Positions 6,217 through 62,523 of a stretch of DNA of 63,208 bases are shown here, piece after piece. Every line of letters starts with the position of its first letter. Positions within the stretch are counted from its first letter, which is position 1. The notes beneath the pieces were generated by a model. That model was not told the origin of the DNA. It saw only the letters and a program-made list of their open reading frames with translations, and ran no database searches. The DNA comes from Neophaeotheca triangularis (Eukaryota): assembly GCA_054600435.1 (NCBI GenBank), contig BAAIJX010000045.1, forward strand, positions 124,001 through 187,208, in the 5' to 3' direction. A program made the translations under genes and the position numbers.

Positions 6217-8438
6217 ATGGCCGACATCATGAAGCGCAAGGACTTGAAGTCCATGGTGCCACAGCCCAAAATGTACAAGAAGCCTCCCTTCAGCGTCGAA
6301 GCTCCCGGCTACTCCAAGGTCGAAGGCGAGACCATCCCGCGCAGAAACTACCGTTGCAAGGACGAGCTCGCGACCAGGCCCGACCCGGACGTCGGCACCG
6401 TCTACGACATTCTGCGCTACTCCAGCAAGAAGTATGGTAATGCAAAGGCCCTGGGCAAGCGCAAGCTCATCAAAATGCACGAGGAGAACAAAAAGGTCAA
6501 GAAGATGGTCGATGGGCAAGAGCAAGAGGTTGACAAGAAGTGGACCTACTTCGAGCTGACTGCCTACGAGTACATGAGCTTCGTCGAATACGAGCAAACG
6601 GCGCTCAAGATTGGCCAGGGTTTCCGCGCTCTCGGTATGGAAAAGGGCGATCGCGTCCACCTTTACGCTGCCACACACCCTTACTGGCTTGCCACGGCGC
6701 ACGGAGCCGCCAGTCAGAGCATGCCCATTGTCACCGCCTATGACACGCTCGGAGAGGAAGGTCTTAAGCACTCGCTCCAGCAGACTCACGCAAAGGCCAT
6801 CTTCCTAGACGCACACCTGATGCAGAGGCTGGTCAACCCTCTCAAGGATGCCAAAGACATCCAGCACGTCATCTACAACGACGATGATTCCGCTACCAAC
6901 AAGCAAGACCCAGAGGATGTGGCGCAATGGAGCAAGCAGCTACAGGACGCTCACCCCCACCTTACCATCACCAGCTTCAGCGATTTTCTCAAAAAGGGCG
7001 AGCAGAACCAGGTCGAGCCTGTTGCACCTTCGCCTGAAGACCTGTGCTGCATCATGTACACATCCGGCTCGACGGGCACGCCAAAGGGCGTCTTGCTCAC
7101 CCACGAGAACGTTGTGGCTGCCATTGCAGGTGTCGACGTGATTGTTGGGCCATACATCGGACCCGGCGACGGCCTCCTCACATACTTGCCTCTTGCACAC
7201 ATTCTCGAGTTCATGTTCGAGAACGCCTGTCTCTACTGGGGTGGTACCATGGGTTACGGTAACCCGAAGACTATTTCCTCGGCAAACGTCCGAAACTGCC
7301 AGGGCGACATTGCCGAGTTCAAGCCTACCATCCTAGTCGGTGTTCCCGCAGTGTGGGAGACCGTCAAGAAGGGTATCATGGGCGTTGTGAGCAAGAAGGG
7401 CGCAGTCGCACAAAACATGTTCTGGGGTGCCATGAACGCCAAATCCTTCCTCATGGACAACGCCGGCTACGTTCCCTTCGGTGGCATGGGTACTAGCGTC
7501 ATCGACAATGTTGTCTTCAAGAAGGTACAAGAGCAGACCGGTGGACGTCTGAGGATCTGCATGAACGGTGGTGGCCCAATTGCAAAGGACACACAGCGCT
7601 TCATCTCCATGGCCATCGCGCCCATGATTTCTGGCTACGGCTCCACGGAAACCGCAGCCATGGGTGCCCTCACCGACCCTCTCGCCTGGACTGACTCTGC
7701 CCTCGGCGAAATGCCCGGCTCCGTCGAGATTAAACTCGTCGACTTCCCCGACGCCGGCTACTACAGCACCAACAACCCCCCTCAAGGCGAAATCTGGATT
7801 CGCGGCGCTCCCATCACAAAGGGCTACCTCGACCTCGAATCCGAAACCAAAGAGTCCTTCACCGACGACGGCTGGTTCAAGACGGGCGACATTGGCGAAT
7901 TCGACAAGATGGGCCAGCTGCGCATCATCGATCGCAAGAAGAACCTGGTCAAGACCCTGGCGGGCGAGTACATTGCCCTGGAGAAGCTCGAGTCCATCTA
8001 CCGCTCTGTGCCCGTCGTCGGCAACATCTGTGTATACGCCGCCGAGGATCGCAACAAGCCCGTCGCCATCATCGTGCCCCAGGAGCCCGCTCTCAAGAAG
8101 TTGGCGAGCGAGAACGGTATCGAAGACCAGGGATACGAGCAACTGTGTCAGAACGACAAGCTCAACGGTGTCGTGCTGAGGGAGATGCAAAAGTCCGGCA
8201 AGCAGGGCGGATTGAACGGTATCGAGATCATCGATGGTGTCGTGTTGAGTGATGAGGAGTGGACGCCGCAGAATGTGAGTTTTCACCCCACTCCCTAATG
8301 CCAACAATCTCTATCTGAGTGCAATCATCGCTAACTCTTGTATGTCAGGGTCTTACCACATCAGCGCAAAAGCTCAACCGCAAGGGCATCTTGCAAAAGT
8401 ACCAAAAGGAGGTCGAGAAGGCTTATGGCGGCAAGTAG
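6217..8438 (+). CDS. FAA1: Long-chain fatty acyl-CoA synthetase (Faa1/Faa4 type)
   Basis: AMP-binding motif IMYTSGSTGTPKGV, YLPLAHILE, GYGSTET and DGWFKTGDIGE...IIDRKKNLVK. Likely start is ATG 6217. Intron 8275-8348 leads to the last exon GLTTSAQKLNRK...GGK*. Confidence 0.93.
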
Positions 8439-9431
8439 AGAAAGGAATGAGACCTGCAGGAAGGAGAAGGGCTTGTGGATACTTGAACAGACGCCCGGAC
8501 GCAGAATGACGGTAATGAACAGCAAGCGGGCGTTTACTTTTTTACAGCGCGCATGTGTGTCTTTCAACAATACCTTAGCTAGTTTTTTTAATCCCCTCTC
8601 ATGGCGTTTACGGCTTTTTGTAGTGGTATTGAAGAATTGAACTAAAAGAGTCTTCTCAGCTTCCTTGTGTCCCTGGTAAAGGCTATCGGAAATCGCCTGC
8701 TGTTGTCCCCTAGCCCATAGGTCTGCAGCAAACACTGGCGGGATATCCATTCCTCACGAGAATCGCACATCTACCCACCCATCCCTGCAGAGTCATGAGG
8801 CCAGTAATCCATCCCTGCGACTTGCACACAACAGAATCCCCCTCTCCTACCCAAGAACCAAGCGACCTCAACACCAACCCAGCTCAGCCAAACCACCAAA
8901 ACCCCCTAATCCCGGAAGAACCCCAAGCACTTCCATAATCGTCCAGTCGCATTGCCAGCCGCGTAGACAATCATGCACGCTCGTCTCTCATGCCCTACGA
9001 TCGTGGACTTTTCACATGGGTTTGGATGGATTCGCAATCTACTCTGTCCGCCGTGGCAAAGGGCTTGGGTTCGGCGCGGCGGGTATTACTTAGGGAGGTC
9101 GATTAGGGCTGGGGGGTTTTGGGCCGGTCTGCCGTGGCTTTGCTTGGTGGGCTGATGGGTGGGATGCATGAGTGGCGACTGAGCTCGAGGAAATGGGGTC
9201 TGGTGGGCGAGATGGGTTGAGTTCTTTGCTCGGTCAGGGGTGAAGATTGGCATGGCTTGGATGCGACTGCGGTCGGTGTTGTGGTTTTCTTTCTTCCCAG
9301 TCTGTGCAGGGGGTGGCGGGAAGACTGGCCAAGAAGTGGAGAGTCCACACAACAACTGGTTTCGACAATCGCGGCGAGCGGACATGCAGCAGCAGTCTGG
9401 CCCCCAATCGCACATGCTGAGTCTGGCGATC

Positions 9432-18084: not shown

Positions 18085-18527
18085 GCTCGTTGTTGAAATC
18101 TGAGCGCTGAAGCAAGCGTAAGGTAGGTAGTTATCTAGCTAACTTACCGAGCTATGTTGAAGGGGTTTTGAAGTCGAGTACGAACGTCGCTGCTGGAGGT
18201 AGCACGTGAGACTTTCGTAAAGGTCGATGAGAGAGTCCCGTCCAGTTGTTGGATGTCGGGAGGTTGCGTCCGTGCTGAGTCACTCCAGTCCGTCACTGCA
18301 GCCTCACAGTGGCTGCGACTCTCTTTTCTTCCTCAGGTACGTTACCTATACTCTCGACACAAGTCTAAGGTAATCACTATTTATCCAGCCTTTCAGGTTG
18401 ATGCTCTATAGTATTGACTGTGCTCTTTTCACCATCATGATACGTACGTATTGACGCTTTTTGTACCGTTTGACGGAAGAAGCAGGCCTGGCGCTTCCTT
18501 TGCCGACCCTTTTACCTTTTACCACCC

Positions 18528-20495
18528 ATGGACTACATTCAGGTCCCAAAGCCCAGGCTGTGGAAGAGTAAAACTGACTTTTTCCGTCCGTTTCGCTCGA
18601 GATCGACTGGCAGTGTCGGTGAGAATATTGATCCTTTGTTCGATCCGAGTGCGGTCCGACGAAATCCTGATGAACCTGACCTGCGAGACCTAAACGCGGC
18701 ACTCTCGGCCTTGATCGACGTCTTTCCGCACATCGAGCCGGAAGTCTTCAGAGAGATGCTACTCAACATGGGCGAGGAGAGCAGATTGCAAGTCGTGACC
18801 GAACACCTCCTGAAGAACAAAGCCAAATGGATCAAAGGTCGGTACAGGACGCCTTTTTTCGAAAAACTGCAGGCCAAGGCACAAACGAAAAAGGCACCCA
18901 AAGCAGCCTATTCTAATCAGCCCTGCGATGGCCCTTCCACTGAGGAACGATTCCGTAGTATGGCCTATCAAAATGCAACGAAGCAAGTATTCTACCAGGA
19001 GTTCCGCAACCTTGGCCATTCGACCATCAAAGGCGTCCTTGCCGAGCACAATTATTCTTACACTCTGTCACGACCGACACTGCAACAGCTGTCAAGTCGC
19101 TCATGGCGTTTCTCTCTTTCGGGACTTTTCTCGAAACGTGACGCTCCAGCAGGCATCGACACACATCCATACGTCGCATGGCTTCCAGACGGCGAAAACG
19201 GGGCACCTCCAAAGCCCGCCGTGCGCAATACTGGTAACGACGAGCTAAATACTGAATTGTTCAAACTCTTTGTTCGGCCTATAGTGGAGACGCGTGAGCG
19301 TGAGCAGCTCGCTGCAGATTATGCAGCAGCCACCCTCCTTAGTGAAGCCGAAGCCGAGGATGCAGAAGCACTGTTTGACTGTGAGTGCTGTTTTGGCTCA
19401 GTCATCTTCGAGCAAATTGCACCTTGCGATGGAGACGGCCATTATACATGCTTCGAGTGCCTTCGAAGAGCCACGAATGAAGCCGTCTACGGACAAGGCT
19501 GGGCACGGAGTGTCAACATGGAAAGAAGCAGTTTGAGCTGTATGTCGTCAATGGCAGAATGTCACCAATGCATACCAAGCGAGCTGGTCAGAAGGGCTTG
19601 CGAAGTCAGTAACGAGAGTCACGACGCTTGGGAAGCTTTCGAGCAGAGAGTCATGGGAGAGGCACTACTCCGCAGCGGTCTCCCTCTACAGCGATGTCCA
19701 TCTTGCAACTATGCCGAAGTCGAAGAAATCCCCGCGGCCCATTTCAAAGACGTTTCAGCCATTTACAAGCACGTAGCCGCCGGGACCCCACTCTGGGCAG
19801 CCATACTCATCCTCTCCCTCCTCCCCATTTCCTTTTCCCTTCTCATCCCAGTCTTAGCCCTCACCGCATTCGTCCTCCTCGCCCTCCGTATCCTCCCCCA
19901 AGGCACCCGCATCCTCAACGACAGCCGGACCCGTGTGCACCGCAGCCGCCGCACGCTAAAATTCACCTGTCAATCCCCAACCTGCGGCACCACAACCTGC
20001 ACCCGCTGCACGCGCCCCTGGCTCGATCCACATACATGCTTCGACTCGGAGCGCACCAGCTTACGCACCGCCATCGAGTCTTCGGCAACAGCAGCCATCA
20101 AGCGAACATGCCCGCGCTGCAATCTCAGTTTCGTCAAAGACTCTGGTTGCAATAAGCTAGTGTGCAATTGCGGCTACACCATGTGTTATGTCTGCCGCAG
20201 CCAGATTCTCGAGAAAGAAGGATATTCGCACTTCTGCCAGCATTTTCGGCCGTTGGGTGGACGGTGTACTGAGTGTGCCAAGTGCGATCTGTATGCTGAT
20301 GAGAATGAGAGTGAGGTTGTTAAGCGGGCTGCTGAGGTTGCCGAGAAGGCTTGGAGGGTGCAAAGGGGAGAGAAGACGGGTGATGATGGGCGAGATGCTA
20401 CGGATGCGATTGTGGAGGCGATTTTGGGTGGGAAGGGTGGGCTTGGGAGGTGGGAAGTCTGGCTGGACGCTGTTGTGGATGCTTTGCTCACGTAA
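18528..20495 (+). CDS. RBR (RING-IBR-RING) E3 ubiquitin ligase, RNF216/TRIAD3-like, with N-terminal CUE-like domain
   Basis: CUE-like LIDVFPHIEPEVFREML, RING1 CECCF...CDGDGHYTCFEC, IBR CPSC...CQSPTC...CTRC...HTC and RING2 CPRCNLSFVKDSGCNKLVCNCGYTMCYVCR. Confidence 0.88.
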   Translation: MDYIQVPKPRLWKSKTDFFRPFRSRSTGSVGENIDPLFDPSAVRRNPDEPDLRDLNAALSALIDVFPHIEPEVFREMLLNMGEESRLQVVTEHLLKNKAKWIKGRYRTPFFEKLQAKAQTKKAPKAAYSNQPCDGPSTEERFRSMAYQNATKQVFYQEFRNLGHSTIKGVLAEHNYSYTLSRPTLQQLSSRSWRFSLSGLFSKRDAPAGIDTHPYVAWLPDGENGAPPKPAVRNTGNDELNTELFKLFVRPIVETREREQLAADYAAATLLSEAEAEDAEALFDCECCFGSVIFEQIAPCDGDGHYTCFECLRRATNEAVYGQGWARSVNMERSSLSCMSSMAECHQCIPSELVRRACEVSNESHDAWEAFEQRVMGEALLRSGLPLQRCPSCNYAEVEEIPAAHFKDVSAIYKHVAAGTPLWAAILILSLLPISFSLLIPVLALTAFVLLALRILPQGTRILNDSRTRVHRSRRTLKFTCQSPTCGTTTCTRCTRPWLDPHTCFDSERTSLRTAIESSATAAIKRTCPRCNLSFVKDSGCNKLVCNCGYTMCYVCRSQILEKEGYSHFCQHFRPLGGRCTECAKCDLYADENESEVVKRAAEVAEKAWRVQRGEKTGDDGRDATDAIVEAILGGKGGLGRWEVWLDAVVDALLT

Positions 20496-21776: not shown

Positions 21777-24214
21777 ATGCCGTCCCGAGACGCTTCAGCA
21801 TCACCGGAAGATGCCCGTCCGGCTTCCAGCAGCGCCAGCAGTAAAGGGGGAAAAGATGGACCTGCCCACGTCGAACTCGGCGATATGGACTCGAGTCCGC
21901 CGAGGCAAGAGCTACCGATTGAGAATGACTTGATGCAACTGGCCAGGTTGGGCGAGCTCCGATCGGTGCAGAAGCTGTTCGACAGTGGAAAATACACGGC
22001 AAAGTCTACAGACGACCAGGGCATTACACCCCTACACGTATGGCCCGGCCCAGTCTACATCGGAACAGCCGCATTCGCTAGAGGAGACTGACAGCTATCC
22101 AGTGGGCCGCTATCAACGGCCACCTCGCCCTCTGCCATTTCCTCCTGCAATCCGGCGCAGACGTCAATGCTCGCGGCGGTGAAGCTCAAGCAACTCCCGT
22201 CCTCTGGGCCAGTAAACGATGCCACCTCTCTGTAGTCTCACTACTACTCCAACACGGCGCCGACCCTCTGCTCCGCGATGATCAAGGCTACAATCTTCTC
22301 CATTCCGCCACGCTCGACGGCAACGTCTTCCAGCTGATCCTACTGCTACACCAACCCGATTTGCCTGTCGATGTTCCCGATACACAAGGTCATACCAGTC
22401 TGATGTGGGCGGCTTACAAAGGTTTCGGAGCATGTGTGGAGATACTGCTGCGTTGGGGTGCGGATGTGCACGCTACGGATGATATGGGCTTCACTGCGCT
22501 GCATTGGGCGCTGGTAAAGGGCAATTACATGTGCATCCAGAAGCTCGTCGAGTTTGGAAGTGACCGCTACGCTCGGTCGAAACCACAGCCCGGACCAGAC
22601 GGGACACTGGACCCGAATGCCGAAGGCGATACTCCTTCCATGACCGCCCAAAAGATGAAGAGTGACCGGCAGTACAAGAGAGCGTTGCTTGAGTCCGGCT
22701 TCGACAAGCACGGCCAATCCATGCATCATCCAGTGCCTTTTGTCGAGGACCGCAGAAAGTTCACAAGGCGTTTCTTCTTCCTCTGGCCCTTTTTCTTGGG
22801 AGGTCTGCAGCTGCACATGCTCGCCTATCTTCCAGTCTGGGTTTCTGTGCCGGGAGTGTTGATAGTTGGTTACGCCCTGCAATTTGCCGCCCAGCAGTTG
22901 TTGAGATATGCGCCGACTGGCATGAAACACATGCATTACACGCCTTTCCTCGCTGGCATTTTTGCGGCCACGCTATTCTGGACAGGCGTCCAATACGCAT
23001 TAAATATTCTGCCCACGACAGGGAGTACCAATATTGGATGGAACCTGCTATTCGTTGTTGCTTACCTAGCCACCGCCTACTTTTACACAGTCACGATGAC
23101 GGCCGACCCTGGATACGTGCCTAAAAGTTCTAGCAGAGCAAAGACGAAAAAGACCATTGACGAGCTCGTGGAGACCGCCATGTTCGACGAAAGACATTTC
23201 TGCTCGGCTTGCATGATCCGCAAGCCATTGAGGAGCAAGCACTGCAAGCGATGCCTTAGATGTGTAGCAAAAGAGGACCAGTAAGTCTTGAATACCCTCA
23301 CATGTCCGTCTTCAAGCTGACTCAATTTCCCCCCCAGCCACTGCCCCTGGGTCGACAACTGCGTCGCCGTCAACAACCACAAACACTTCGTCCTATATAT
23401 GATAACTCTCTGCACCGGCATCGCCACCATAATCCGACTAACCTTCATCTGTATGTCCGCATCCCGTCCCAAAACTCCCCCCCTCACCAATCCGACTAAC
23501 CCCAAAATCCCCACAGACGTTGCCCTCCTCCCCACCCCGCCCGCCGCTTCCGAGTGCGCCCTCCTCTCCCCCCCTTATTGCACAACCCTGCAAAAAGACC
23601 CCCTAACCCTCATAACCGTCGCCTGGGCCTCGCTCCAACTAATCTGGGTAACGATGCTCATCGCGGTCCAACTCCTCCAAATCGCCCGCGCAATGACAAC
23701 CTACGAATCGATGCGGGGAATCGACACGCCGCCGTCAGCTCTCGCCAACGCTCTGATGACCGGCGGCACAACCACCGACGCCACAACAGGCGGAGGCCCG
23801 GATCCCGCCGCCGTCCCCTCGCCTCACGGCCACAACCATACCCCCGGCGGCAGCGGCAGAGGCAAGCCCAAAACCGGCTTCTGCTCTCAATGGGTCAAAT
23901 TGCTAGGTCTGGACACTTTCTTCGCCATCGCTTTCCGTGGTTCCAAAGCCGGACAAGGACAAGCTCAAAGCTGTGAGCGCAGACGCCGTCGCAACGGTCC
24001 TAATCCTTTTTCAAAGGGGGTGTTGAGCAATTGTCGGGATTTTTGGGGGGATGGGCCGGTTTTGAGAGCTAAGGGGGGAGGAGGAGGGGCTGGAGGGGAT
24101 AGCGGGACGGGTAGGTTGGGGGGCGAGAGGGTGGATTGGAGGTTTGTTTATGAGGTGCCTGCTGGGGTTGGGAGGGGGAGTGGGTACCGGGCTGTTCCTG
24201 GGGGGGAGGTGTAG
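21777..24214 (+). CDS. AKR1: Palmitoyltransferase Akr1 (ankyrin repeats + DHHC domain)
   Basis: Ankyrin repeats (ITPLH|WAAING, GHTSLMWAA, GFTALHWAL), TM segments and [32 protein letters not shown]. Introns at 22038-22102, 23281-23337 (splits DHHC) and 23451-23516. Confidence 0.93.
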
Positions 24215-24407
24215 TAGGATGGCTATGTTCCTTTGAAGTGAGGATGTCGGTGGGGTTGGAGGGGAGGGGTGGGTTGTGTATGGGTAGATGGGCTGTTTAG
24301 TGTAGCATAATGGTATGAGAGGATGGAAAGACCATGGCTTTTTGGTTGTTTCATTCTTGCTCCTTTGCTTGCTTTAACGGTGTTGACTTGATTGTATTAT
24401 CAAGTCC

Positions 24408-25443
24408 TAAAAAATTTACTCCTGAGCAAAAATTTACAATTTACAATTTGCTCCTGAGTAAAAATTTACAATTTACTCTTAAGTAAAATTTACAATTTGC
24501 TCCGGAGTAAAAAAAAAATCACAATTTGCTCCTAAGTAAAAATTTACAATTTGCTCCGGAGCAAAAATTTACAATTTACAATTTGCTCTCGAGCAAAAAT
24601 TTACAATTTACTCCTAAGCAAAAATTTACAATTTACCCCTGAGCAAAAATTTACAATTTGCTCTCGAGTAAAAATTTACTCACGAGCAAAAAATTACAAT
24701 TTACTCCTGAGTAAAAATTTACTCTCGAGCAAAAATATTTTACAATTTGCTCTTGAGTAAAAAAAATTACAATTTACAATTTGCTCTAGAGCAAAAACTC
24801 TTACAATTTACAATTTGCTCCGGAGCAAAAATTTACAATTTACAATTTGCTCTAGAGTAAAAACTCTTACAATTTACAATTTGCTCTGGAGCAAAAATTT
24901 ACAATTTACTCACGAGTAAAAATTTACTCTAGAGTAAAAATTTATAATTTACTCCTAAGCAAAAATTTACTCTCGAGCAAAAATTTATAATTTGCTCTGG
25001 AGTAAAAAAAAACCAAAATTTGCTCCTGAGTAAAAATTTACAATTTGCTCTAGAGCAAAAACTCACAATTTGCAATTTACTCTCGAGCAAAAAATTTTAC
25101 AATTTACAATTTACTCCTGAGTAAAATTTCACTCCTCGAGCAAAAATTTATAATTTACAATTTACAATTTACTCCTAAGTAAAAAATTTACAATTTACAA
25201 TTTGCTTTCGAGCAAAAATTTACAATTTGCTCTTAGGTAAAAATTTACTCCTGAGTAAAAATTTACTCCTAGAGCAAAAATTTACAATTTACAATTTACT
25301 ATCGAGCAAAAATTTACAATTTGCTCTTGAGTAAAAGTTTACTCCTGAGTAAAAATTTACAATTTACAATTTACAATTTACAATTTACAATTTACAATTT
25401 ACTCTTTACTCTTAGAGCAAAAATTTACTCCTGAAATTTACTC
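24408..25443. repeat. AT-rich array of ~37 palindromic units TTTRCTC-NN-GAGYAAA separated by 0 to several ACAATTT heptamers
   Basis: Counted by eye. Unit spacing is mostly 18, 25 or 32 nt (18+7n). It lies between the convergent 3' ends of AKR1 and the DUF2415-like gene. Confidence 0.95.
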
Positions 25444-25643
25444 ATGCGAGCCGTAGTCTCGCTTCTTGGTATAGTACAACAAACGCCTTAACCCAAACGG
25501 CCCGGTGTCCTGAAAATGGTCGTCATCCTAGCGTATCACATATTCAAACCCCTTCTCTCCCAAACACCATCCACAACCAATCCCCCTCGCCCTACAGGAG
25601 GGTAATACCGTATAGTCCCTCATCCCCACAGCGACTCCACCCC

Positions 25644-28426
25644 TCAAACAACCTCCACAGCCCCCCAAACCCTCCTCCCCTTTGTCCTCAAACTCAACTC
25701 GAAAATGCCCTCCTCGGTAGCAGCCCAAAGCCTGCCTCCATCCGGACTAACAGCCAAACCCGCCGTCCTCACACCTTCCGTCCCCGCCGCTCCTCCCAGC
25801 GGTCCGTAACTTGCGGTAAAACCGTAAACTCTGCCCAAACCCCTCGCGCCGCCCATGGCAGTAACTTCGAGAGCGCGTGCTTCTTCCAAGAGGCGGCGGG
25901 TCTCGTGAGCTGAGGCGCGGGCCCCTGTGGTGGGGATAGCGGTGGTGATGCTGCTAGGGTTTGCACCGGTATTGCGGTTCGGGCTCGCCGTGTTCGAGCC
26001 ACCGTCTCCCCGCGCCGCTGCCCGTAGCCCGTCGCGCACGGCTCGCACGTCGTCGCCAAGGAGGCGTGCAGTGTCGCCCACGCTGGCGATGTTTTCGCGC
26101 AGCAGGCGGAGGTCGTCTTCGGAGATGCCGCCAGGGCCTGCGGCGGAGCGGAGCGTGCTCGTTATGGCGCGGAGTTGGGCGTCCGAGGCTGCTTCGGCCG
26201 GGGTGCGGGTGCCGCGGGTGGTGGAAGAGCGCTCGGTGGCGGCGTGATTGCGAGTGGGGCGTGAGGCGGCGTAGACTGCTCGGGCTCTTTGGCGGGCGGC
26301 TTCTCGCTCGGCTGCGATGTCTGCTGGGGTCGGGCGGGCGGAGGTGGGGACGGGGTCGGGGCTTCGAGTCGTTGTGATGCCGTGGCGGTCAGAGCTTTCG
26401 TGGTCTAAATGCCATGTTGGTTGGGTTTGCTGGCGAGACTCTGTCGCTGACTCTTCTTGATCAGTGGGCTCAGGGATAGGAGGCGCCCTTGCCGCACCTT
26501 CGAAAAGCGGCCCTCTCTCAAGATCTAGTGTAGTCTGTATCTGGCGCCATGGATTGTCTTCATCTGATGCTTGCGCTTCTCGTCGTGCGGTAGAGCCGGA
26601 GCCAGAGTTCGATTCAGGAGGGGTGAGTAAGATGCTCGCTCTTCGCCTCGGCTGGCGCTGGGGACCGTCATTATGGGCAGACTCCCAGATGTTGGCAGGT
26701 TCGGGCAGGCCACGCAACGGAGGGATAGGACTGTCCCGGCCCCTGGAAGAAGTAGGACGCTCAGAGGCAGCATAAGCTCGTGTCAATTCAGGAAACGTCT
26801 CGGCCATGGAATCGAGGACATCGCTTGCAGGCATTGTAGTCCCGCCGGCTTCGGCGCTGTTCGGCGTTGATCTTGAGGAAGAGCCGCGTGAGTTTTGGGA
26901 GAAGAGGTCTGCGGTAGTGTAATTGACGTTTCGAGGGACCTCCCCTTGACTCCTCGCTTCCTCACGCTGTCGGGTCGTCCGCAGAGTCTCGAGTATTCGC
27001 TGCTCATGTGTGGTCAAGCCATGGGGATCGTCCTCCATGGCGGATCTCGCAGCATCGGTCTGTGAACGCAAGCTCATTAGCTCTTGTCTCGCTTGACGGT
27101 GCCTCCTCCTGGCCTCGATGTATTCCGTGGCATAATTTACATCACCGTTGTCGTTTCTTCTATGCCGACGCAAGAACTCGGCTTCGAGATCTTGAAGACT
27201 GCGTTGATGCTGCTGCTCCCGTTCCTCTTCACCTCCAGGCAAATCCTGCACTTGCTGCTTGTCGAGTTTCTCGTTCTTGAGATCGAGCTCAACCACCTGT
27301 TTGCTCCTCAGCCCAACTCTTAGATCGCCGACGCAGATCCTTCCTTGGTCTTCCGCCCAAATCAGCAGATCCCAAGGATCCGGACTAAACGTGATCGAGC
27401 GCACGGCACCCGGATGCGGCGGTGGCTGGTCAGCCCTCGAGCCTGGTACTGTCGCAACGATCGCCTCCTCGGGCTCCACTTCAGGATCGTCCATCAACGC
27501 CATGTCAAACACCGTCACATAGCCGCCTTCCGAACCAACCGCTACCAACCTCCCACTCGGGTTCCATGCCGTTGTAAAGTATCCTCTCACTTCATGCCTC
27601 TCACTGATGTGCAGCCTGACCACCGCCCTTTCTACCCACTCAACAGCATCGCTTCGCAATCGATTATGGGGCTTTGGTATCTGCGGCGGCGGACTCCTCA
27701 TCTCCCGCCAGAAAAAGTGCGCCTGGTTGTCATCGCCCACAGCGACCAGCGTTTTGCCATCCGGGCTAATTGTCGCATGGTTGATAGCAAAGGGCAAGTC
27801 CAGACAGCTCGTCTCCAAACTCCGAGGTAAGCTGTACATGCGTACTGTCTTGTCGTTGTTGGTGAGAACGGCGACAATGTCATCCAGATGGGCCTCCTCA
27901 TCCTGAATGCGATGGATGGAGATTGAATTGACAATCTCCTCGCCGATGCGCTCGACCTTTGTACGGGCCGTTCGTCGGCTCTCTCGTGCGCTGGCGTTGA
28001 AAGCAGTATACCGGTCCGTCTCGAGTGGAAGGCTGTCGTCTACTTCCGCGCCTGCGCCAGTGCCATCCAGCTTCACGGCGGCAAAGTGTCCCTCATCCTC
28101 GCCTCCCACACATACCCATCCGTAACCGCTGGCTGTGCATCTTGCCTCAAAAGGGAGAGTAACAATGTGTTTGCGCTTCTTCGTAGCCGTGTTGAGAAAG
28201 TAGACATCGTGGCCGCTAGCGTAATAGATGAGGTCGGGCTCGGAGGGGGAGTTGGAGATGTAGTGGCGTAGCTGCCAGTGGGAGATTGGTATGCGCAGAG
28301 GGTAGAAGGATTGCTGGGGGTCCACGAGATCGTCGGCGTCGCGATATCTGCAACAATGTCAGTCAGGATATGTTGTGCTGCCTGAGGTGCATGTGGTAGC
28401 GCTCACGGGATTTGATCGATAGCCAT
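25644..28426 (-). CDS. DUF2415-like WD40/beta-propeller protein
   Basis: LRIPISHWQLRHYIS, VLTNNDKTVRMYSL, INHATISPDG, GAVRSITFSPDPWDLLIWAEDQGRICVGDLR and C-terminal TAGLAVSPDGGRLWAATEEGIFE. Exon 1 (ATG 28426, MAIDQIP) joins via intron 28348-28406. Confidence 0.82.
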
Positions 28427-29060: not shown

Positions 29061-30233
29061 CTACTTGGTATCCTTCTGCACCTTTTCCACCGTCTTCTGC
29101 ACGTCGGCGAAGAGAGGGTGCTTCTCCTCGAGACCCGTCAACTTCTCCGTCGCAGTCTTGGCGTCGTTGTCCTTGAGGATCTTGGCGAGCTCAGCGCTCT
29201 CGTCGTCGCCCTCGACGTTCTGGAAACGCAGAGCCATCTCGATGCCGCCGAGGAGGTGCGTGTACTTGCTTCCCTGTTCGGCGAGGAGGGCAGCGGGACC
29301 GATGAAACGCTCCTTGCGACTCAACTTGCGCATGGGGGCACGTCCGACACGCTCCACATTGTCCTTGAGCACGGGATTGGAGATGCGCTCGACAATCTTC
29401 TTGACGTAATCTTCCTGCTCTTGCTTGCTGATGTGGGTGTGCTTCGAGGTGATGATGTGAGCCGTCTCCTTGAGCGTGTCCTGGACAATGTCGTGGAGCT
29501 CCTTGTCTTGCAGCACATCGTGAATGTACTTCTTGCCCTTGTTGTGGCCGTAGTAGGCAGCGGTGGCGTGGCCGGTGTTGACGGTGTAGAGCTTGCGCTC
29601 GATGTACGGGGTGAGGTCATCGACGTAGTGGACGCCCTTGATGTCCGGCGGGCTGCTGGGCTTGAAGGGCTCGCTCTCGACGCACCACTCGAAGAACTTC
29701 TCAATCATGACGCTCATGCCCATGCCCTCTGGCTGGATGGGAACGATGCGGTCAATGGCAGAGTTGGCGAAGCGAGCCTTGTCCTTGATGTTGGACTTGG
29801 TGCTGTCGTCCAGGTGGCCCTCGATGAAGCCACGGAGGGTGTCGGTACCACCAATGGCGTTCTCGCAGGCGATGACGGCAAGGGGCTGGTCGGCCTTGCG
29901 AGCCATGATGCCCTTGGCGATGGGCTCGGCAATGAACTTGAGAATGTTGGGGCCAACAGCGCAGGTGACAATGTCGGCAGTAGCAATCTCCTCAATGACC
30001 TTGGGCATCTCGTGCTTGGAGTTGATGGCACGGAAGTTGTCGATGGTGAATTTGGTCTCGCCATCAGGGCCAATCTCGGTGACCTCGTACTTGGGGGTCT
30101 TCTGGAGGGTCGAAATCAACTCGTCCATAACGTCGACGAAGACGACCTCATAGCCAGAGTTGTGAAGGAATTCGGCAACGAAGCCACGGCCGATGTTGCC
30201 GCCGCCGAAGTGAACGCCTTTCTTGCCGGCCAT
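29061..30233 (-). CDS. mpdA: Mannitol-1-phosphate 5-dehydrogenase
   Basis: [18 protein letters not shown] (Rossmann), [43 protein letters not shown] and [22 protein letters not shown]. Strong codon bias. Probable 5'-UTR intron at about 30265-30355. Confidence 0.96.
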
Positions 30234-31509
30234 GTTGGTATGGTTTGTTGGTTTCGGTTTGAGTCTGAAGGGAAGGGTATATTTGTTTAGAGTTACTCTT
30301 GTGCAAGTGGGAATTGGGTCCAAGCTACTGGAGCTCACTGCGGAGGCCATACTTACGCTGTGAAGTGGTGGTATGCCGTCGGGTGTGGTGGAGTGTTGTT
30401 GGTGGTATGGCAGTGGAGGGGAGTATTGGAGAGGATGGAGTGGGAAGAGAGGAAGAGGAGTGGAATCAGGTAGAGAAGTGAGAAGTGGAAGGAAGGAAGG
30501 TGGTGGTAGTACAATGTTTCCAAACGTGAGGCAGCTGCAGCTGGGAAGGGAAGGGGCGGGGCGGGGCAGCAGCAACGTCAAGCACGGTCAAGCTACTACA
30601 CGGTGTGACGGTGGAACGCTCTCGGCCCCTGCCGAGCGCAGCCCCTCCCACAAACGTTCCTTTCCCCTTTCTTCACTTCACTTCACTTCACTTCATAATG
30701 GGCTTTGCAAGTACCAGGACAAAGGTCTGCGTTTACATCGCCTCCTTGAACCACCACACCTCATTTCTCCCGGCCTTGCCTAAATAAGGTAGGTAGGCAC
30801 TCGACCAGCGCTTCCAAGCCGGCGCCTCGGGCAGACGTGCGTTCAATATGTAATATGAACGTCACTCGTCGGAAGGTCTGGGAGAAGCTCGATTGTATCT
30901 GATAGAAATATGAGCCTACGCTGCGAGATATACCGGCCGAAACGCCATTACCGCAACGAGTCAACTAATATGACAGAATAGGGCGGAAAATTGTCAATCA
31001 GCAGAGTGAGGGGTAGCGGTTCTCTTGTCATTTGGAAGGTGGGAATTCAGACTAGGAAGGTTAAGTATTAACGGTATTGTTCAGGTATTCTCCTTTGCTG
31101 TTCTAGTCCAGACGAATGGTCGATAAAAGCGAACGTTGTGAAGGTGCTCTATTCCGCCACTGATCGTGGGTATAAGATATCTCACTGGCAGGCTTCATCG
31201 ACATAGGGACATACCACCTGGCATGTGCTTGGAAGAACGAGCTAGCGACACTGAGCGACCTGAAAGCTGGAAAAAGGTGCCCGTCTTAGCTTCCGCCAGG
31301 TGAAGGTAGGGTAGACCGCGTCCAGTGGCAGAACATCGACAAGCGCAACACAGCGTTGAGACACAATGCAACACTCGAGACAACGGCACTGTGTCGTATA
31401 CCTACCATGCCAGCAATGCTCCGCCATAAATTCACACCACTGCCTGCCCTAAACAAGCCTAACCAGAATGCGACATCCCCTCTGAACTTTCTTACCCACC
31501 TCCACCACC

Positions 31510-57209: not shown

Positions 57210-57554
57210 TGGAGGATGAGGAGAAGGAGGTGGTGATGTTGTAAGAGAGAGAAGGAGAACAGCCTTTTTATCTTCTCACCAGGCACGGACCAGTTTGGTT
57301 TGCGCGGTGGAGGAGGAGGAGGTGGAGGAGGTGGTGGTGGTGGTGGTGATGTTGTAGGAGAGAGAAAGAAAGGAAAGGGGCAAGGCCTTTTTATCTTCTC
57401 ACCAGGCACGGACCAGTTTGGTTTGCGTGGTGGGGGAGGAGGAGGAGGAGGAGGGGGAGGAGGAGGTGGTGGTGATGTTGTAAGAGAGAGAAAGAAAAGG
57501 AAAGGGGCAAGGCCTTTTTGTATTCTCACCAGGCACGGACCAATTTGGTTTGCG
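57210..57554. repeat. Three tandem copies (periods 123 and 127 nt) of a promoter-like unit upstream of the SNF2 gene
   Basis: Core TTCTCACCAGGCACGGACCA(G/A)TTTGGTTTGCG at 57273, 57396 and 57523. Each is preceded by GGA/GGT runs and GGTGGTGATGTTGTA. Confidence 0.92.
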
Positions 57555-57735
57555 TCGATATTGAAGTCAAAACGTCAATATCGAAGTAGATAGGCTCGTC
57601 AATATGGAGCTCTTTGCTTTCACTTGTCGTTCCAAGTGAGTTTATGCTCGATATTGAAACCTCGATATTGAAACCCCAATATCAAGTTCATCCAAAAGTG
57701 GAGTAGCGTGACTTCCGTGCTCGCGCTTTATATCT
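57555..57735. promoter_or_regulatory. Cluster of six TCRATATYGA-like quasi-palindromes plus TATA-like element (module A)
   Basis: Sites at 57555, 57575, 57599, 57648, 57662 and 57676, then GCTTTATATC at about 57725 followed by a CT-rich tract. Confidence 0.65.
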
Positions 57736-59656: not shown

Positions 59657-60602
59657 GGTCAACCAATATCCTCAAACGAGGAAGGAGAGCACCGAAGGTA
59701 TGTGAAGTTGCCTTTTTTGGTAGCCAAAGAGAGCAGAGTTGATCACGCTGCCTGTCATCAGCACCCGCCTCTTATAGCAGCGTGCCCAGACAACATGGGG
59801 ACAGTGGAGGACTCGAGGGCCACGAGGGTGCGTTTGGAGGAGTATTGCATGCTGCAGTCTAGCCGGGATACTACAGGTGCGTGTCAGCAGTATCAGTAAC
59901 ATCCTTCTACACATGAAGCCGTATGGGGAACTAATGCCATGCTTATATGCAGCATGACCGACGGCCAAGGTGAGAGATACTCCGGGCGGTCCTATCGTGA
60001 AGCAATGGATGCACCTCTTCTCCGCAAGCAGCGCATACGGCAAAGTGGAGGGGAAGAGGATCGTCTGGTGTCGAGGAGACAAAGCTACTTGTACCGACCA
60101 GGGAGAGGTCTTCTTCTCGGAGCTCGGGTATAAAGCGCCCGAGCGACCGTGCACCAACCGGGACAGGAAATATTCAACGACACCTGATCTTCTATATAGC
60201 GAACCACTCTGCATCGAAGCCTCGAAAATGTCATTTCTGCAGTCTCTTCTCGGCTCGTAAAGAGGGTTCTATAGAGACGGTCGTGCCTAGAATCTCGGAG
60301 CAATCACGCCGGCATCGAGCAGGTTAAATGGCTATAACAACGTGCTCGTATCTTTTTCTTCACTGTTCGCCGGAGGCTTAGAGCCCACATGCTTCTAAAT
60401 ACTTCCCGTTCTTCCTATCTAGGAGTAATTAGTATCTCTCAAGCATTGCTACGCTAAACTGCGTCGTTCTTCGCATCGCTCCGAGACAGTCATGCTTTAG
60501 TACCTAGTGACGTCTACGAACTAATTAAATAGGTTGTCGAGATACTATATAAGTAGTAGAAGCTGTAGACGGGCCCGCGGACCCAAGAGCACCGCACCTA
60601 TG

Positions 60603-60730
60603 GAAAATCAAACCATCCTGCTAGATGTTACCGTCTCTCTAGAATATCAAATCATCCCGCTAAAGATTACATTTACCGTACCTCTAGAAAATCGTCATAT
60701 CCCCGTCTAAACCCCTCCTCTAAACCCCTC
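60603..60730. repeat. Short degenerate direct repeats in a TpA-rich region
   Basis: gaaaatcaaaccatcctgcta...ttaccgtctctctagaa is repeated as gaatatcaaatcatcccgcta...ttaccgtacctctagaa, followed by tctaaacccctc twice. Confidence 0.55.
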
Positions 60731-62285
60731 TACTAACTACTACGAACTTTTGTAGTTCCTTACTATCCTTTCTATTCGCATCCTTACGCGTTAGAGCTAG
60801 AATAACTAAAAAGTAGATACTATAGTAGTCGCCTTCGTCGACGATATATTTTTATATTTCGTAATACCTCTTTTTACTAGTCTTTAGCGTCTAGACGGGG
60901 CATAGACACCTTTAGGGCCTTCTTTAGGCGTAAAGTTACATCTATAAGTACTACTAGTAATATTAGAAGTAAATTTAGAAGTAAAGGTAGAAGTAAAGAT
61001 AGAAGTAAGGGTAGAAGACTAGAAGTAAAGGTAGAAGTAAAGGTAGAAGTAAAGGTAGAGGATAAGAAGTAAATCTAGAAGTAAAGGTAGAAGTAAAGGT
61101 AGAGGATAAGAAGTAAAGTTAGAAGTAAGGGTAGAAGTAAGGGTAGAAGACTAGAAGTAAAGTTAGAAGTAAAGGTAGAAGTAAAGGTAGAGGATAAGAA
61201 GTAAAGTTAGAAGTAAGGGTAGAAGTAAGGGTAGAAGACTAGAAGTAAAGTTAGAAGTAAAGGTAGAAGTAAAGGTAGAGGATAAGAAGTAAAGTTAGAA
61301 GTAAAGTTAGAAGTAAAGGTAGAAGACTAGAAGTAAAGTTAGAAGTAAAGGTAGAGGATAAGAAGTAAAGTTAGAAGTGAAGTTAGAAGTAAAGGTAGCT
61401 AGCGTATCTTTTCCTCCTCCTAATCTCGGATCTTCAAAAGGTGTACAACGAGATGGCCGAGCTAGTCAACCTTAAATACAGTATTGCTGTCTTAACGAAT
61501 AGTAAAGTCGGGCGAGGTAGCAGCCTAATTGAATAGGGTGTAGGCATCCTTCATCGCAAAAGCCAGTTTATCGTTTGCCTTAAGGGCAAGGAGTTCGGAT
61601 TAGGCGCTACGCTCCTTGACTTGTATCAGCTTGTCGACAAGACTTCCGAGCTAGCGGATCCTGTAAGTCTTTGCGGTGACGGTGCCGAGGTTCAAGTCGA
61701 AGAAGAGTCGGATTTTGGCATGGTCGAATAGGTTGTAGGCATCGCGGACTACTACAGAGAGGTCGTCGTTAGCCGCCCGTGTTTCGTTTCTGATGACCAT
61801 TAGCTTTGCTACAAGACCTCTAAGTTAACGAATTCTGGAGCTAGGTCTGGCATTCTGGTCTAGGGCAAAGGAAGTGGTCGCTTCCGTAAAGTCGAGAGAG
61901 CTATACGCGGATGTTACAGCAAGTTCGAGCTTCTTCACGCGGGCGAGTAGAGCGTCGGCGTCCGAGAATAGGTTTTCGTCGAGAAAGTGTTCGCATATAG
62001 TCGCAAGAAAAGTACGGCTCTGTTGTGGATTGTATTGGGCATTGTTAATGGTTTCACCTAACGCCTGTCGTAGGAGATTATCGTGTGCCGGGTCACATTT
62101 GTATGGGATCAGTATTGTCTAGTCTTGTAGGGATCACGGAATACACACCACGCCAAAACGGCAGAATGTGCGGCTTCTTGACCAGCCCTTCGAGTTATCC
62201 GTCTGCTGTTGAGGGTATCATGATCCAACCCCGCCTGGTGATTGGTGGCATACGCTCTTGCTCCAGCTCCTGCCGCAAGAGGCAT
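60720..62285 (-). pseudogene. RIP-inactivated orphan gene with three ~55-60 aa helical repeats
   Basis: A long protein-like frame at about 62100-61400 (CDPAHDNLLRQALGETINNAQY...) is interrupted only by TAA/TAG at positions readable as CAA/CAG. Coding-like sequence resumes at about 60950-60720. Strong TpA excess. Confidence 0.7.
60963..61398. repeat. Minisatellite of 12-nt AGAAGTAAAGGT-type units with an 88-nt higher-order period
   Basis: GAGGATA marker recurs at 61102, 61190 and 61278; 8-nt inserts AGAGGATA and AGAAGACT. Confidence 0.95.
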
Positions 62286-62523
62286 GTCGTCGAGAAATAG
62301 GAAATAGGTCGTCGAGAAATAGCAATGAGAGCTAGCAGGTTGGGCAAGAGGCGGCGGGGCGGCGGCGGCGGCGGCGGCGGGGCGGGGCGGCGGCGGCGGC
62401 GGCGGCGGGGCGGGGCGGGCGGTGGTGGTTGTGGTTGGAGAGTGGAAGAAGGAAGAAGGTAGGTATGAAACTGTTTAAGTAAACAGGACTGAACAGCGGG
62501 AAAGCTCGGACTATAACCAGGCG

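Follow-up and report, generated by a model that had tools for sequence, protein, structure and literature searches.

A palindromic tandem array between convergent genes of Neophaeotheca triangularis, probably a minisatellite formed through slippage, RIP and mutation at the palindrome apex

Minisatellites (VNTRs) with interspersed variant repeats are the general class of tandem repeats closest to the locus described here. Arrays of palindromic protein sites are also known and include the homologous regions of baculoviruses, the family of repeats of EBV oriP, and plasmid iterons. In Neurospora, according to one passage of PMC4858203, 155 bp of perfect homology between close repeats can trigger RIP. 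Fungal Helitrons are described, in the portion of PMC5148889 that concerns their ends, as possessing termini with hairpins and an ATTTT 3' end, and tandem insertions are mentioned there for other organisms. No report of a comparable fungal array was found in the open-access literature.

The array is located in Neophaeotheca triangularis, a Dothideomycete termed a black yeast in part of the literature, whose genome comprises 25.4 Mb in 136 contigs. The window, that is, the whole stretch of 63,208 nucleotides analysed here, corresponds to C45:124001-187208. Like minisatellites, the array consists of head-to-tail modules of 7-32 bp with shuffled variant units and higher-order duplications, shows an apparent length difference between strains, and has a second, dispersed copy. 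Unlike a typical minisatellite, it has as its unit a palindrome that varies at the apex, its spacer is a stutter of the unit start, and its mirror-image polymorphisms come from fungal RIP-type change. With the baculovirus, EBV and iteron arrays it shares many sites of 16-30 bp in AT-rich intergenic DNA (palindromic in the viral cases), but it has neither an adjacent or known cognate protein nor constant helical spacing, occupies only two loci, and has decaying arms at one of them. As in Helitron termini, a short hairpin lies beside a minus-strand T-run, but element body and terminal motifs are lacking and the unit is absent from the three Helitron remnants of this genome. The array is real and unusual for its genome, and slippage together with RIP acting on a palindromic unit accounts for most of it. 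It is most likely a young, unstable repeat and probably represents a small, lineage-restricted, dispersed palindromic minisatellite in which slippage, RIP and a mutable palindrome apex have all left their mark.

The array lies in a gap of 1.43 kb between the stop codons, at 24214 and 25644, of two convergent genes (Table 1), as had been proposed from the letters alone, and the second array is likewise found between convergent frames. The upstream gene contains introns, its start is inferred, and its stop lies about 190 bp before the array; we take it to be of AKR1 type from its domain layout. The stop of the DUF2415/WD40 gene lies about 200 bp beyond the array. The GC content of the array is 26%, against 54% for the window. 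Other neighbours are a gene for an IBR-domain protein (18474-20495, weak Pfam match) and a gene of the mannitol dehydrogenase family (29061-30587).

Table 1. Positions of the array, its neighbours and related features (window coordinates unless a contig or locus is named)
Feature	Position	Strand	Details
Array, probable minisatellite	24408..25443	+	37 palindromic 18-bp-module units and ~42 copies of 7-bp module
Higher-order duplication, 66 bp	24780..24904	+	Sequence read directly
Run of pure slippage	25354..25402	+	7-bp module, seven perfect copies in tandem
Ankyrin-DHHC palmitoyltransferase gene, AKR1-type	21777..24214	+	Ank_2 E=9.8e-39; DHHC E=1.7e-17
DUF2415/WD40 protein gene, main frame	25644..28358	-	DUF2415 E=9.2e-14
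Second array, same words	C37 ~100.55-100.84 kb (L020:5046-5340)		~300 bp; between convergent frames
Helitron_like_N remnants	C54:16783-17370; C57:115357-115902; C44:125255-125611		In-frame stops

In the interval 24400-25450 of the window, 34 16-mers match TTTRCTCNNGAGYAAA at up to 2 mismatches, and three further units with 3-nt centres (CTC, CTA, TTA) bring the total to 37 palindromes of the form TTTRCTC-N(2-3)-GAGYAAA, which bears out the 1-kb array reported in the preliminary description. When the whole genome was searched for the 16-mer, as that description had proposed, 25 of the 29 exact matches fell within this array and the reversed-pattern control gave 0. The units are tandem and co-oriented, with a length inside the range of minisatellites and VNTRs (~7-100 bp), and variant units are interspersed, 24 distinct 10-base cores being present among the 34. 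Besides the 18-bp unit, the vocabulary of the array contains a single further word, 7 bp long. The spacing of 18+7n given previously holds in part: 27 of the 36 inter-unit spacers measure exactly 2+7n bases, while the remainder differ in A-tract length or by a CTC insert. The co-oriented heptamers that had been taken for spacers do occur, but the 7-bp word repeats the opening 7 bases of the unit (AATTTAC) and is not an independent element. Higher-order duplications of 66, 94 and 248 bp were identified, and the right end consists of two truncated units. The two 66-bp duplicates differ by C>T at a right-arm CpA and by C>T at a CpG centre, indicating that such sites change after duplication. G at position R is found in 16 of 26 units preceded by the heptamer and in 1 of 11 preceded by an A-tract (p=0.004), a near-confinement that would follow from conversion of G to A by slippage between the heptamer and the start of the unit. 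In 565 kb scanned, no cluster of short hairpins is denser: the array reaches 25 sites per 300 bp, whereas no other place exceeds 14 and the mean is near 1.5.

The array had been thought to have largely escaped RIP because it keeps abundant CpA. The RIP spectrum of the genome was taken from two copies of one retroelement (L001 and L004, on C18 and C44), in which C/T polymorphism affects 97 of 197 CpA, 30 of 202 CpG, 4 of 154 CpC and 10 of 379 CpT sites; among trinucleotides, GCA is changed at 17 of 29 sites and ACA at 24 of 75. This retroelement also contains a chromodomain-like frame (read by eye) and one chance exact match to the 16-mer. Like RIP-mutated repeats of the Pezizomycotina, the array is marked at R, Y and GAG by C>T at CpA and G>A at TpG, in excess of other contexts: R corresponds to TpG and Y to CpA, the variable arm contexts are GCA/TGC and TGA, and the first G of GAG has become A in 6 of 16 units where it follows T and in 0 of 21 otherwise (p=0.003). 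The C and G bases that stay constant in the unit lie mostly in CpT, CpC or ApG contexts, which the retroelement spectrum spares. The remaining arm bases are A/T or belong to RIP-resistant CpT/ApG and for this reason appear conserved. Much of what had been described as conserved arms with an R/Y wobble is thus RIP acting on a palindrome. Unlike in RIP-mutated repeats, however, the mark is partial. The CpA of the heptamer is nearly untouched (3 of 42 copies carry a change, whereas 24 of the 75 ACA sites of the retroelement do), and the indices are mild, with TpA/ApT at 1.18 and substrate at 1.10, compared with 2.71 and 0.26 in the repeat near 61 kb of the window. Overall depletion of CpA/TpG was not found in the array, the substrate index of RIP-mutated elements being 0.26-0.54. 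The supposed escape from RIP therefore stands for the indices and the heptamer and fails for R, Y and GAG>AAG, which all lie at RIP dinucleotides. The absence of long perfect homology between copies within the array may account for the partial mark. The repeat near 61 kb is a RIP-eroded element (60400-62300, TpA/ApT 2.71) and includes a 12-bp tandem repeat of ~39 copies (60964-61398), which is probably a decayed coding repeat. A further array on C44 (L047:5253-6675), 1.4 kb long with a 15-bp unit and located upstream of a Helitron remnant, is heavily RIP-mutated, showing that RIP is able to saturate short-unit arrays in this genome.

Variation is concentrated at the centre of the palindrome, as had been claimed, and per-position entropy is far from uniform. 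Over the 34 two-base units it ranges from 0 to 0.38 bit along the arms, except for 0.67 at the first G of GAG; R and Y each reach 1.0, and the two centre positions 1.26 and 1.79, the peaks thus being the centre, R and Y. The centres of the 37 units are CT (12), TC (7), TT (4), TA (4), CG (3), AC (2) and TG (2), plus the three of 3 nt. They do not vary freely, since 7 of the 16 dinucleotides occur and a pyrimidine stands first in 32 of 34. The inverted forms AG, GA, AA, CA and GT were never found among the 34 two-base units, which leaves arm repair by template switching without support. Identical neighbouring centres are slightly depleted (2 vs 5.6 expected, p=0.044). Block inheritance of centre types, which had been expected, was unsupported by bigrams (p=0.82) and trigrams (p=0.58) against shuffles. 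At least 3 shared centre types cannot arise without a non-RIP transition, a transversion or an indel; the 12 non-RIP arm sites, by contrast, show 5 mismatches in 444 sites over the 37 units, all of them singletons. In a simulation of block turnover with uniform neutral mutation (1500 runs at each of 5 rates), at least 3 shared centre variants together with 0 shared arm variants occurred in at most 1 of 1500 runs at every rate, so that the concentration goes beyond a uniform neutral model; the contrast is weaker when the centre is compared with only the 4 C/G arm sites (p about 0.04). The centre excess is real and goes beyond RIP alone, and it points either to faster mutation of the apex or to constraint on the arms.

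The second array, on C37, is 75% identical to the present one over about 200 bases (E=4.7e-36). An interrupted palindrome opens it, followed by a perfect one; the centres are, in order, an 11-nt form, CTAG, CTA, CTA, CT, CT, TT, TT, TC, TC and CT, which may be read as a founding series. Its arms carry more non-RIP mismatches, 9 of 120 sites in 10 full units vs 5 of 444 in the 37 units here (p=0.0005). The flanks of the two arrays share nothing significant, the best match being a G-rich 17-mer (E=0.013). The surroundings of the C37 array are gene-dense, with a GC content of 0.46-0.59 in each kb, and its flanks gave no Pfam match above the cut-off. Beside it lie two orphan frames, both on the minus strand (L020:5514-7223 and 7650-9152, 569 and 500 aa). 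For the 446-aa product of the second, a set of 5.8 billion proteins contained no relative of similar length apart from the protein itself, nor was a Pfam match, a paralog or an Atlas hit obtained. Among the matches listed from genome-wide pattern and DNA searches of the 136 contigs there is no third array. With two arrays among those matches, the repeat is not a per-chromosome element, and a role in origin, segregation or pairing on each chromosome finds no support, both arrays lying in gene-dense DNA and neither in the long, gene-poor, AT-rich DNA, one stretch per chromosome, of a centromere. The founder palindrome occurs exactly only at C37; its 1-mismatch matches remain at control level (26 vs 30), and ten such sites that were inspected lie in coding or retroelement DNA. 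Single 16-mer matches are those in the retroelement family of C18 and C44 and isolated ones on C38, C29 and C36.

A probable history of the array as a minisatellite may be outlined as follows, and it needs no conserved function. The site, where two 3' gene ends meet, is one where insertions would be tolerated. The founder would have been a perfect palindrome with a CTAG centre, persisting at the start of the C37 array, which was duplicated by slippage while the centre shrank stepwise from CTAG to CTA and to the 2-nt forms, and the spacer would have arisen from stuttering over the opening 7 bases of the unit. We infer that a block was then copied to a second, ectopic site and expanded here to 1 kb. 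Change of C>T at CpA/TpG (and CpG), by RIP or through 5mC, would account for GAG>AAG, for the polymorphisms at R and Y that mirror each other, and for some of the centre variation (CG>TG>TA, TC>TT), and slippage between the 7-bp module and the unit start would also swap R. The rest would be owed to the palindrome apex, where 1-base indels and substitutions would be especially frequent, most likely through the unpaired loop that is left when single-stranded units fold back during replication or repair; such fold-back would also drive length instability. Against the minisatellite reading stand the centre excess, the mild RIP indices, the position of both arrays between convergent genes (n=2), and the retention of array DNA in a second strain.

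Contigs from three sequencing runs of one study (X1, X2 and X3) were compared with the locus; such data show presence, not absence. The flanking genes in X2 differ from the window by about 1-2% (98-99% alike). Contigs of X2 enter the array at the same left edge and skip 508 and 747 bases, and depth over 24542-25243 is 6-45, a figure from short contigs that map ambiguously on the repeat in one strain. This suggests a shorter or rearranged allele in X2, and length polymorphism between strains is likely. Array DNA in X2 is also joined to three loose ends, at least 58 letters each, that are foreign to this locus. One of them corresponds to C37:104231 (2 mismatches in 22, at a shared TAAAA), a point inside the intact gene for the 446-aa orphan, 3.4 kb from the C37 array, and the X2 homolog of this orphan differs at 3 of 30 bases. 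The other two have no match in the genome at up to 2 mismatches, nor near the C37 array at up to 3. Such a junction could have arisen either by insertion or by a 3.4-kb deletion that begins within the C37 array. X3, a more distant relative (~80% alike where aligned), has no contig on the array, in data that show presence and not absence, and its two flanking genes are on different contigs.

As the main alternative, which we regard as possible but doubtful, a putative homodimeric protein would read the TTTRCTC half-sites across an unread 2-bp centre. The putative docking array would then be a barrier, a terminator aid or an insulator between the convergent genes, and its copy number may drift. 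This is consistent with arms whose non-RIP mismatches are few and unshared while centre variants are shared, with R and Y varying independently as two half-sites would, with centres of 2 nt in 34 of 37 units, and with the setting at convergent 3' ends, where X2 keeps array DNA. It is opposed by the restriction to two loci in 25.4 Mb (among the matches listed), by the decay of the C37 arms with centres from 2 to 11 nt, and by the identity of the tolerated arm variants with those that RIP produces. Nothing of X3 was placed on the array, and two metagenome scans gave no fungal match. The unit spacings of 18, 25 and 32 bp correspond to 1.7, 2.4 and 3.0 turns, others occur as well, and no fixed helical face results, so that the constant helical spacing of iterons and viral origins is not seen here. 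A helically phased A-tract bend was considered and is not supported, phasing being weak (0.27 at 10.5 bp, a figure that stands without a null). No gene for a cognate initiator or binding protein was found nearby, the flanks here being the Ank-DHHC and DUF2415 genes and those of C37 being without a Pfam match.

An unlikely extension of protein binding would have the palindrome array propagate itself with no protein of its own, a putative dimeric protein binding the arms and cutting or exposing the 2-bp centre. Error-prone repair would diversify the centre, and break repair would amplify the array and seed new sites. Such a process would account for the centre excess, the insertion of single bases into centres, the tendency of neighbours to be unlike, and the X2 junction in the orphan gene. 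Less probable is a mobile or break-seeking element, copies of which would be mobilised by an enzyme whose gene lies at another place or would serve as patches at double-strand breaks, with a centre scarred by repeated cutting and repair. Palindromes can break at their centre, and the 1-base centre insertions would resemble repair scars; the contigs of X2 that join array DNA to foreign flanks, one of them within the C37 orphan gene, point in the same direction. Both array ends were read directly at each locus, and neither shows the shared terminal inverted repeats or target-site duplication of a MITE. Flanks are unshared, copy number is 2, and the X2 junction fits a deletion equally well. An origin from Helitrons was rejected, no unit or heptamer motif being present in 20 kb around each of the 3 loci (best blast E=0.88). 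The earlier proposal of a subterminal array of a mobile element is thus not supported.

Very unlikely is that selected DNA or RNA hairpins do the work, as a cruciform or as a structure in overlapping 3' UTRs. An apex of the type C-NN-G may form a loop able to close tightly, and the first 593 nt of the array fold as DNA at -100 kcal/mol (z=-10.8), but a strong z-score for the whole array is a trivial outcome of repeating any palindrome. Taken singly, the units form weak hairpins, with a median of -0.8 kcal/mol and 16 of 37 below -1. The R/Y pairs are G-C in 7 units, G-T in 10, A-C in 12 and A-T in 8, which leaves R and Y uncoupled (p=0.33) with an A.C mismatch in 12 of 37 units, and this lack of covariation argues against the selected hairpin or cruciform suggested in the preliminary description. 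A search of the array against Rfam gave 0 matches. In the part of PMC7999016 that treats hairpin loops, these are said to contain the spacer or 4-6 central bases. An assembly artefact can hardly be credited. No single contig from any run spans the whole array, and the assembly may itself derive from X1, but contigs of X1 tile the array with 0 differences, the three long pieces at single-copy depth (90-122 vs 122-126 in the flanks), another strain has the same kind of units, and a second, diverged array exists.

Unrelated palindrome arrays of a similar kind were encountered, apparently outside fungi. A 28-base pattern of unit plus heptamer gave 0 matches in a metagenome scan covering few fungal genomes. 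A two-unit pattern gave 11 metagenome loci, of which 7 represent one bacterial-looking locus and none looked fungal on inspection; pattern scans of prokaryote genomes gave 2 matches and those of viral contigs 0. Direct sequence look-ups brought up no look-alike. As fungal genomes are few in the scanned collections, the scans speak only weakly for absence. Intergenic arrays on apparently bacterial metagenome contigs (L026, L028, L029, L031, L032, L033, L035 and L036), which we take to be REP/BIME-like, resemble the present array in having 21-bp units around TTTGCTC-NN-GAGCAAAA, with centres AC, GC or GT and a G/C arm variant, and in L035 the units occur in both orientations. Unlike the present array, they are regular in period and without the heptamer, and as they were found by a pattern derived from the array they are to be regarded as analogues, not homologues. 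RIP would be impossible there, and variation at the centre and at one arm position in these arrays favours a generic structural cause. Their centre variation does not, by analogy, separate such a cause from protein binding.

If the array is indeed a minisatellite marked by RIP, it would serve as a strain marker and as a caution for genome scans, since RIP on a palindromic repeat mimics a dimeric binding motif, leaving R/Y degeneracy in mirror image and arms that seem conserved. The unexplained centre excess makes the locus a small natural system in which apex-directed mutation of short palindromes can be tested. If instead the array docks a protein or propagates itself, it would be an iteron-like or selfish array, for which fungal precedent was not found in the open-access literature. 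Elsewhere in the window, a 123-bp tandem duplication of 2.4 copies with 91% matches, containing a GGA run, is located at 57262-57555. Intergenic patches rich in TACCTAGGTA-type palindromes are found on C1 near 287.6 kb and on C44 near 117.5 kb, and these are the next densest hairpin clusters after the two arrays.
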